In this document: piece by piece, positions 54,735 through 55,964 of the stretch
Position numbering within the stretch: the first letter of the stretch is position 1
Layout of the letters: each line of letters starts with the position of its first letter
Source: Heptranchias perlo
Taxonomy: Eukaryota
DNA: 64,000 nucleotides
Direction of reading: 5' to 3'
Assembly: GCF_035084215.1 (NCBI RefSeq)
Contig: NC_090340.1
Coordinates: forward strand, 3,720,001-3,784,000
Made by a program: the position numbers and the translations under genes
Notes under the pieces: model-generated
Databases searched by the model: none
Told to the model about the DNA's origin: nothing
The model's input: only the letters and a program-made list of their open reading frames with translations

Positions 54735-54844
54735 GCGGTCAAAACTTCATTTATCTGCTGATTTCTGGATGCATTGGTTATGGTCTGTTATGTCTACTGC
54801 TCTTTGTCCTAATTTGGAAGCGACACCAATTCAAGGAGAAGTAA
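54735..54844 (+). CDS. Gene 3 exon 4: uncharged transmembrane helix and 8-aa tail, ends in TAA
   Basis: ttcgtag| GGQNFIYLLISGCIGYGLLCLLLFVLIWKRHQFKEK*. TAA at 54842-54844 followed by AG|GTAAGC. Spliced exons 1-4 give 798 nt = 265 aa + stop. Confidence 0.88.
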
Positions 54845-55052
54845 AGGTAAGCACCCCAAATTCTGAAAATTTCCATGTTAGATGTTCGATTTTAATACAG
54901 CCGTTCTTGAAACAATAATGCGTCACGAGTTGCAACTTGTTTGTACCTTAAAAATGCAGGAACCTGTGGCAGCATCAGGACACCAAGACTGATTGGTATG
55001 ACAATTGGCTCCACATCATAGAGTGAAATTAAAGCTCAGAAAAATAGAAGAC

Positions 55053-55112
55053 TATATCCATATTCCCTCTCTCTTTATATATATATATAGAGAGAGAGGG
55101 AATATGGATATA
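55053..55112. repeat. 60-bp near-perfect palindrome centred on (TA)7
   Basis: tatatccatattccctctctct-t-(ta)7-g-agagagagggaatatggatata. Confidence 0.92.
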
Positions 55113-55856
55113 TGGATATATATATGTGTTCAATATACATTCTAATGACTTTAATCACCATCATTTGCGGTCTGTGTTTGGATAGGTATCATTCTTTTAT
55201 GAATTGGTGTCAAATCCAAGGAACCGTTCACCATCACAGGGTCTCGGTTCAGACCTTTTTGATTAATCGAATCGAGTACATTATGACATGACATCGGTCG
55301 CGCCGTTAAATTTACGCGACAGCTAACTGAAAACAATTCAGAATCACTGGCTGGATATTAAGGATTTAATTGTAAACATTGGAATCTGTGCAGATCTTGG
55401 GGCTCTAAGTATGACAGTGCGATTTTCTAGTCAAATTAGAAGATTTAACACTTACTTTCTGCAAAGATTTAATTCGATTCAATGCATCATGCAATCGTAG
55501 TTTACAAAATAGGGGATGCAGAATAGGAAGGTCTTAGAGGTGGGAACGGAGCAATCCAGAATAATGGCGTCCTCTCCGGAAGCGTGTGTCCATTGCGTAG
55601 CAAGCGTCCTTTTACATCTATCAAGTTTTCATATTAATGACATAGTATCACTTCTCATGTGTGGATTGTGAAACTATTGCTTTACTAATAAACATTAGTT
55701 ATTGAACATCAACTAAATAGAGTAAAAGGTAATTTATAGCAGGTGTATTTTTTTTGGTTCCAAAGAGGCAATTGATTGAAGACGTTAAACTTACGAGTTG
55801 TGCTTCATTTCTATCTCCATTCATTCCAACCACGATATTAAATTATCTTTCTTCAG

Positions 55857-55964
55857 GCTGCACAAGGAGCAGAGGAGAAGAAGATTGATTAAGCCGCTCT
55901 ACATTTTACTGGCTCGGTGAAATCTGCAAACAATATCATCAGTTTGAGAAGCAGCACATTTTAA
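55857..55964 (+). pseudogene. Gene 3 decayed cytoplasmic exon with killed ITIM (now likely 3' UTR)
   Basis: ttatctttcttcag| AAQGAEEKKID*AALHFTGSVKS…; ATT GAT TAA GCC GCT CTA = I-D-[Y>*]-A-A-L. Confidence 0.7.

Follow-up and report, generated by a model that had tools for sequence, protein, structure and literature searches.

The window, that is, the whole 64,000-nt stretch of Heptranchias perlo DNA analysed here, contains a receptor gene (gene 3) in which the exons at 51931-51985, 52116-52436, 53339-53650 and 54735-54846 form an open protein of 265 amino acids. This had been claimed in a first-pass annotation made from the letters alone, and recomputation of the four exons gave the same protein; the TAA that it placed at 54842, 2 nt before a strong donor, was found there, as was a second TAA at 55890. 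The features of the locus are:

51931..51985, + strand: coding part of exon 1 (leader); a 9-nt loose end in runs X5 and X7 matches the exon end
52116..52436, + strand: exon 2, V domain with a joined J-like G strand (Pfam V-set); RNA joint 52435/53338
52406..52417, + strand: codons 116-119, where the family's N-G-T-G is replaced; first Gly of GxG and an N-glycan sequon lost clade-wide
53339..53650, + strand: exon 3, C1 domain (Pfam C1-set); RNA joint 53648/54733
54735..54846, + strand: exon 4, uncharged transmembrane (TM) helix, 8-residue tail and stop; one base longer in phase than in typical paralogs
54770..54817, + strand: TM codons 242-257, with C242 and the clade-specific Y245, C249 and W257 (from alignment rows)
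54835..54836, + strand: GG, putative site of a +1 insertion, the exact base being deduced from the 1-nt gap in paralogs and the like ends of ortholog proteins
54841..54846, + strand: an upstream GT donor, weak, with 4 mismatches against the consensus; if it were used, the stop would be bypassed and a frame of 20 codons in exon 5 would open
54842..54844, + strand: TAA that ends the 265-aa protein, 2 nt 5' of the used donor AG/GTAAGC
54847..55856, + strand: intron 4, 1010 nt, in which neither T1 nor T2 of the tail has left anything that aligns
55857..56320, + strand: exon 5, what is left of the last tyrosine-motif exon of the family (phase 0), now untranslated (3' UTR); its end is approximate, with AATAAA at 56305
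55890..55892, + strand: TAA at the position of the ITIM tyrosine codon, as judged from paralog last exons

Both immunoglobulin domains scored above the Pfam cut-offs (V-set, 38.1 bits against 26; C1-set, 43.8 bits against 21), and the structure model shows a confident chain of leader, V, C1 and TM segments (mean pLDDT 87.9). A homodimer prediction (score 0.02) weighs neither for nor against dimerization. The protein is present in public databases under the automatic name 'light chain-like' (XP_067853489.1/XP_067853495.1, Heptranchias perlo). In a database isoform, X2 (P0001, 231 aa), the opening 34 codons of the V exon (window 52116-52217) are left out, the first cysteine with them; this skip is absent among the RNA joints listed. 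The C-terminus was also considered as a di-lysine ER-retrieval or PDZ signal and rejected, as it does not match these patterns.

The V(J)-C1 family and its normal tail

Across the genome, 112 matches to the C1 exon and 95 to the V exon were counted; those to C1 lie almost entirely on contig C18, in clusters at 2.7-6.0 Mb and 14.5-15.6 Mb. The family thus numbers about 100 V(J)-C1 genes, in these two clusters on C18, and relatives exist in other sharks, in rays and in chimaera. No description of this family or of gene 3 was returned by a literature search, whose reach excluded most subscription papers, and this cluster of about 100 genes is apparently undescribed.

Forty paralogous loci were fetched, five of which were extended. 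In a typical member the TM exon (phase 1) is followed by tail exons T1 (phase 1 to 0), T2 and T3 (both phase 0), which together carry 3-4 tyrosine motifs. Gene 3 fits the C18 family by its leader, V, C1 and TM exons with their phase-1 joints and fails to fit it by the translated T1-T2-T3 tyrosine tail, of which it has a vestige of the last exon only.

TM exons were compared in 37 paralogs, leaving out the two copies of gene 3 and one locus without a TM match. Thirty-one are open and end in phase 1, whereas that of gene 3 ends in phase 2. The others comprise two that end in TAA-AG like gene 3, one in phase 2 without a stop, two in phase 0 with stops and one with a broken donor. Four loci (L057, L066, L071 and L072) combine an Arg at the start of the TM segment with a short tail and are likely activating members. 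L057 and L071, two unrelated paralogs, have a TAA 2 nt before the donor as gene 3 does, so that an end of this type arises repeatedly. Loss of the tyrosine from the last tail exon was also observed in L041 and L045, to Asn and Asp, respectively.

Broken copies are common in the cluster, and both neighbouring family copies in the window have ectodomain stops. One (19969-20280 and 18981-19275, - strand) has stops in V and a frameshift in C1; the other (35806-36123 and 34922-35209, - strand) has one stop each in V and C1.

How the tail was lost and what is transcribed

The first-pass annotation described the tail as doubly disabled, by an extra base in the TM exon and by a stop at an ancestral tyrosine codon. 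Both lesions are supported by the paralogs, and the loss is greater than it supposed. The TM exon of gene 3 is one base longer than those of the four paralogs aligned with it, with a 1-nt gap near 54833-54836, in agreement with the difference in phase. At the position of the TAA at 55890, Tyr is found in 15 of the 17 paralog last (T3) exons. It is codon 12 after the acceptor in the five paralogs with examined T3 boundaries, as the TAA is in exon 5 of gene 3, whereas the Tyr of T2 is codon 9. Alignment of exon 5 gave z scores as high as 4.3 with T3 exons and 4.4 with T2 exons. We assign it to T3 on the basis of the codon-12 spacing and its terminal position; T2 queries match it because T2 and T3 are alike.

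The two intermediate tail exons, which the first-pass annotation had not taken into account, are also absent. No remnant of T1 was found in intron 4 (4 + 2 alignments, z at most -0.4), and none of T2, whose queries aligned only onto exon 5. Intron 4 does contain a 60-bp near-perfect palindrome around a TA run (window 55053-55112), which is absent as such in the paralog g3b described below. A further proposal, that removal of a single G would restore the link to the ITIM, fails: exon 5 is phase 0, so that a tail lacking the extra G misses the ITIM frame, and a phase-1 joint into exon 5 reads another frame that stops after about ten codons. As far as comparison with paralogs can tell, the tail loss is a frameshift stop together with the loss of two exons and of the tyrosines.

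Transcription was analysed with three RNA-type runs (X5, X6 and X7) and one DNA run (X1) from one sample, placed on 51500-58500; the RNA status of the three is a guess resting on their spliced joints. Canonical splice sites had been claimed for exons 1-4. Spliced joints with GT..AG ends were found for introns 2, 3 and 4 in 3/3 RNA-type runs, among them the 54846/55857 joint proposed earlier as a check, and none of these joints in the DNA run X1; the joint of exons 1 and 2 was seen only as a 9-nt loose end in two of the three RNA-type runs. A second form of the intron-4 joint in RNA-type contigs bears the T of g3b, and thus g3b is spliced too. The contigs also answer the suspicion of an assembly error, since those reading the two stops (X6 at 54745-54844, X7 at 55874-56239 and X1 at 53082-55971) have 0 other letters there. 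RNA contig cover stops near the AATAAA at 56305, and therefore exon 5 looks terminal. Stops within 50-55 nt of the last junction usually escape nonsense-mediated decay; by this rule the gene 3 mRNA, with only 2 nt between its stop and the last joint, is expected to escape it. The first suggestion, that an inhibitory receptor was turned into a surface molecule without a tail, is thus supported, for a transcribed gene, by the RNA joints and the paralog tails.

The weak donor 6 nt upstream of the used one offers another way to read the locus, in which a cryptic basic 20-residue tail with a YxxL motif would be made through this donor or by read-through. The frame is open and its protein is identical in gene 3 and g3b, both substitutions being synonymous, and 2 changes were counted in the first 90 nt of exon 5, where introns differ by 7.6% (p=0.06). 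However, only the downstream donor is used in the RNA contigs (no joint of the upstream one is listed, although rare forms drop from contigs), the upstream donor departs from consensus at four positions, the database clusters hold no longer isoform and the orthologs are annotated with the short end. TAA is also the least leaky stop, which counts against read-through. We consider such a tail quite improbable.

Age of the short-tailed form

Two relatives of gene 3 are close at hand. About 800 kb away, there is a copy (L039, G000:C18:4570822-4580821) that over 10 kb is separated from gene 3 by 8 substitutions and 2 indels. It sits in a repeated block, and at some places the differences of the DNA-run contigs from the window match it; it may be a recent duplication or a second haplotype assembled in tandem. 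The paralog g3b is 90% identical, with about 8% intron divergence, and shares both stops of gene 3; in its exon 5, an insertion of 200 nt follows directly on the vestigial motif (L038 near 5057-5267). Between gene 3 and g3b, 19 frame-shifting indels were counted in 3126 intron nt and 0 in 795 coding nt, where 4.8 would be expected (P about 0.008). The dN/dS ratio is 0.75, not significantly below 1 (N versus S, p=0.37; N versus intron, p=0.06), and is about 1.0 in V.

Proteins ending at the same column as gene 3 were found in Heterodontus francisci (P0003, 261 aa) and Mustelus asterias (P0170/P0025). Their C-termini read K-D/E-x-stop, which, at the protein level, would fit the same inserted G as in gene 3. 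Both protein searches used for orthologs collapse or miss sequences; none was found from catshark, white shark, bamboo shark, rays or chimaera, though these yielded other family members. In a tree built on the ectodomain only (50 rows, after exclusion of long repeat proteins, fragments and duplicate isoforms), gene 3 and the Heterodontus and Mustelus proteins formed one clade (100/99), with the two galeomorphs paired. Its sister clade (100/100) combines tyrosine-tailed shark members with ray or skate genes.

The split of hexanchiforms is put at about 280 Ma in excerpts of a preprint that also cite earlier estimates in the Triassic (10.64898/2026.02.13.705779). The like ends and the common ectodomain clade therefore imply an origin in the Triassic or before, and the inhibitory tail was likely lost once, at that time or earlier, as far as these alignments indicate. 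Convergence is possible and less likely. In its explicit form, the short tail would have evolved in three shark lineages independently, from a tailed ortholog: any +1 shift near the donor makes TAA, and L057 and L071 end alike. Against this stand the same column, the same K-D/E-x-stop and the V and TM changes confined to the clade, and we regard it as improbable.

That gene 3 is a young transcribed pseudogene or an assembly error would agree with the dN/dS of 0.75, not significantly below 1, and with a cluster rich in broken copies. However, the read-derived contigs agree at both stops, coding indels are absent, and g3b's shared stops and the same protein end in two other orders contradict the very young pseudogene that the first-pass annotation had kept as its alternative. 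This explanation is barely credible.

The tail loss in gene 3 is real, old and conserved, in an expressed shark receptor; the design is a known one, and the family in which it is met is new. A frameshift and a stop that resemble gene decay can thus mark an old receptor type that has been kept.

V and TM changes and comparison with known receptors

The clade of gene 3 also differs from the rest of the family in its V and TM segments. The GxG of the V G strand is absent in 4/4 clade rows and present in all 30 other rows in which the pattern could be matched (11 rows were unmatched). In the TM segment, Y245, C249 and W257 are invariant in the four clade rows and occur in 0/30, 1/29 and 0/30 other rows, respectively; a charged TM residue is absent from 4/4 clade rows, and so is a basic residue of the adaptor type (DAP12, FcR-gamma). 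The tail of gene 3 consists of 8 residues after W257, without a tyrosine motif. TM conservation (19/22 and 17/23) exceeds that of V (64% and 60%). TM identity is 0.71-0.79 in five cross-species pairs of the clade, at an ectodomain identity of 0.54-0.68; it averages about 0.40, with a maximum of 0.72, in 78 other pairs at ectodomain identity 0.5-0.7, which are mostly paralogs with apparently shuffled ectodomains and TMs and thus unmatched controls. These changes suggest an altered binding surface and a role of the TM segment in the membrane beyond anchoring.

The reading that we favour, and hold to be fairly probable, is that gene 3 encodes a transcribed tail-less receptor without signalling of its own, which would serve at the surface in adhesion, as a ligand or as a competitor. 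Close to the end of the TM exon, one added base (+1) would have turned the T-AAA-G donor context of the family into TAA; T1, T2 and the tyrosines would have been lost; the mRNA, with its stop so close ahead of the last junction, would have been spared nonsense-mediated decay; and the putative surface protein would act through its ectodomain in the manner of SIRP-gamma. A role as decoy for the ligand of the inhibitory sisters is unproven and appears weakened, because the V G strand differs clade-wide from that of the inhibitory relatives. What counts against this reading is that TM conservation exceeds the needs of a passive anchor. In a rival reading, the gene traded its own tail for a membrane-embedded signalling or partner chain, which would be bound without a charged residue via the face of C242, Y245 and C249, as short-tailed antigen receptors bind theirs. 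These three residues lie on one side of the helix by helical-wheel arithmetic, Y245, C249 and W257 are nearly absent elsewhere, and the TM segment is more conserved than the ectodomain in cross-species pairs. However, the control pairs are unmatched, Cys and Trp may serve palmitoylation or anchoring, and Lys, Arg and Asp for pairing of the DAP12 or FcR-gamma type are missing; the proposal is possible if rather unlikely. Its fullest form, in which an inhibitory member became antigen-receptor-like >200 million years ago through removal of the tail, remodelling of the V G strand and a Cys-Tyr-Cys TM face docking a chain without a charged residue, we consider unlikely.

The tail-less, non-signalling receptor that we favour has its closest precedent in SIRP-gamma, a non-signalling member with a very short tail and no adaptor residue, as described in excerpts of PMC12975943. 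Gene 3 shares this design, its tail being short and free of tyrosine motifs and its TM segment uncharged. In both families V with a J-like strand is followed by C1, and tyrosine-tailed, charged-TM and tail-less members are clustered; sharks appear to have all three mammalian SIRP classes (inhibitory, charged-TM and non-signalling) in their V(J)-C1 family, and the origins of SIRPs are called unknown in a review (PMC9652883). When the family profile was compared with the PDB, the best matches after an antibody chain were UrIg2 (E 3.5e-38) and SIRP-alpha (E 1e-32), and SIRP-gamma (E 1e-27) was among the top ones. However, gene 3 has one C1 and is not a SIRP by domain number (V-C1-C1), the J-like GxG of SIRPs is absent in its clade (4/4 rows), the shark family, unlike SIRP, has about 100 genes, and its tail loss would be a separate event. 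SIRP genes are linked to NSFL1C/PDYN; the SEP-domain genes of this genome, a single synteny marker, are on C22 (presumably NSFL1C-like) and C3, not C18, and an opioid-domain search matched nowhere, its control being likewise blank.

B7-H6 (NCR3LG1) has the same two-domain V-C1 design. It gave the best TM-scores among the Foldseek matches listed (0.48-0.51 by query, 18-19% identity), and the nearest Atlas cluster carries its name automatically. It is a ligand of NKp30, whereas the shark family is ITIM-bearing and multigenic. The domain of RPS13, a neighbour of B7-H6, has no match on C18 (a single synteny marker), and the tree rows include no B7-H6.

The non-rearranging VJ-C1 exon design, in sharks, is shared with UrIg/UrIg2 and other VJ-C1 genes (PRARP, NKp30), and gene 3 bears on the relation of such genes to antigen receptors. 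The V domain of UrIg2 is also without the G-strand bulge, and the terms ITIM and SIRP are absent from the paper that describes it (PMC12227049). UrIg2 differs from gene 3 in having nine C1 domains rather than one and in lying within the Ig/TCR complex; the sole MHC class II alpha match in this genome is on the small contig C1093. These comparisons show none of SIRP, B7-H6 and UrIg2 to be an ortholog of gene 3.

Paired receptor families such as LILR, KIR, CD300 and NITR have tyrosine-motif members beside short-tailed Arg-TM members and many pseudogenes. The shark family resembles them in its classes of members and its many pseudogenes. Unlike their genes, gene 3 has the behaviour of a stable ortholog, kept in three orders of sharks although its cluster turns over fast, and is therefore the natural member with which to seek a conserved self ligand.
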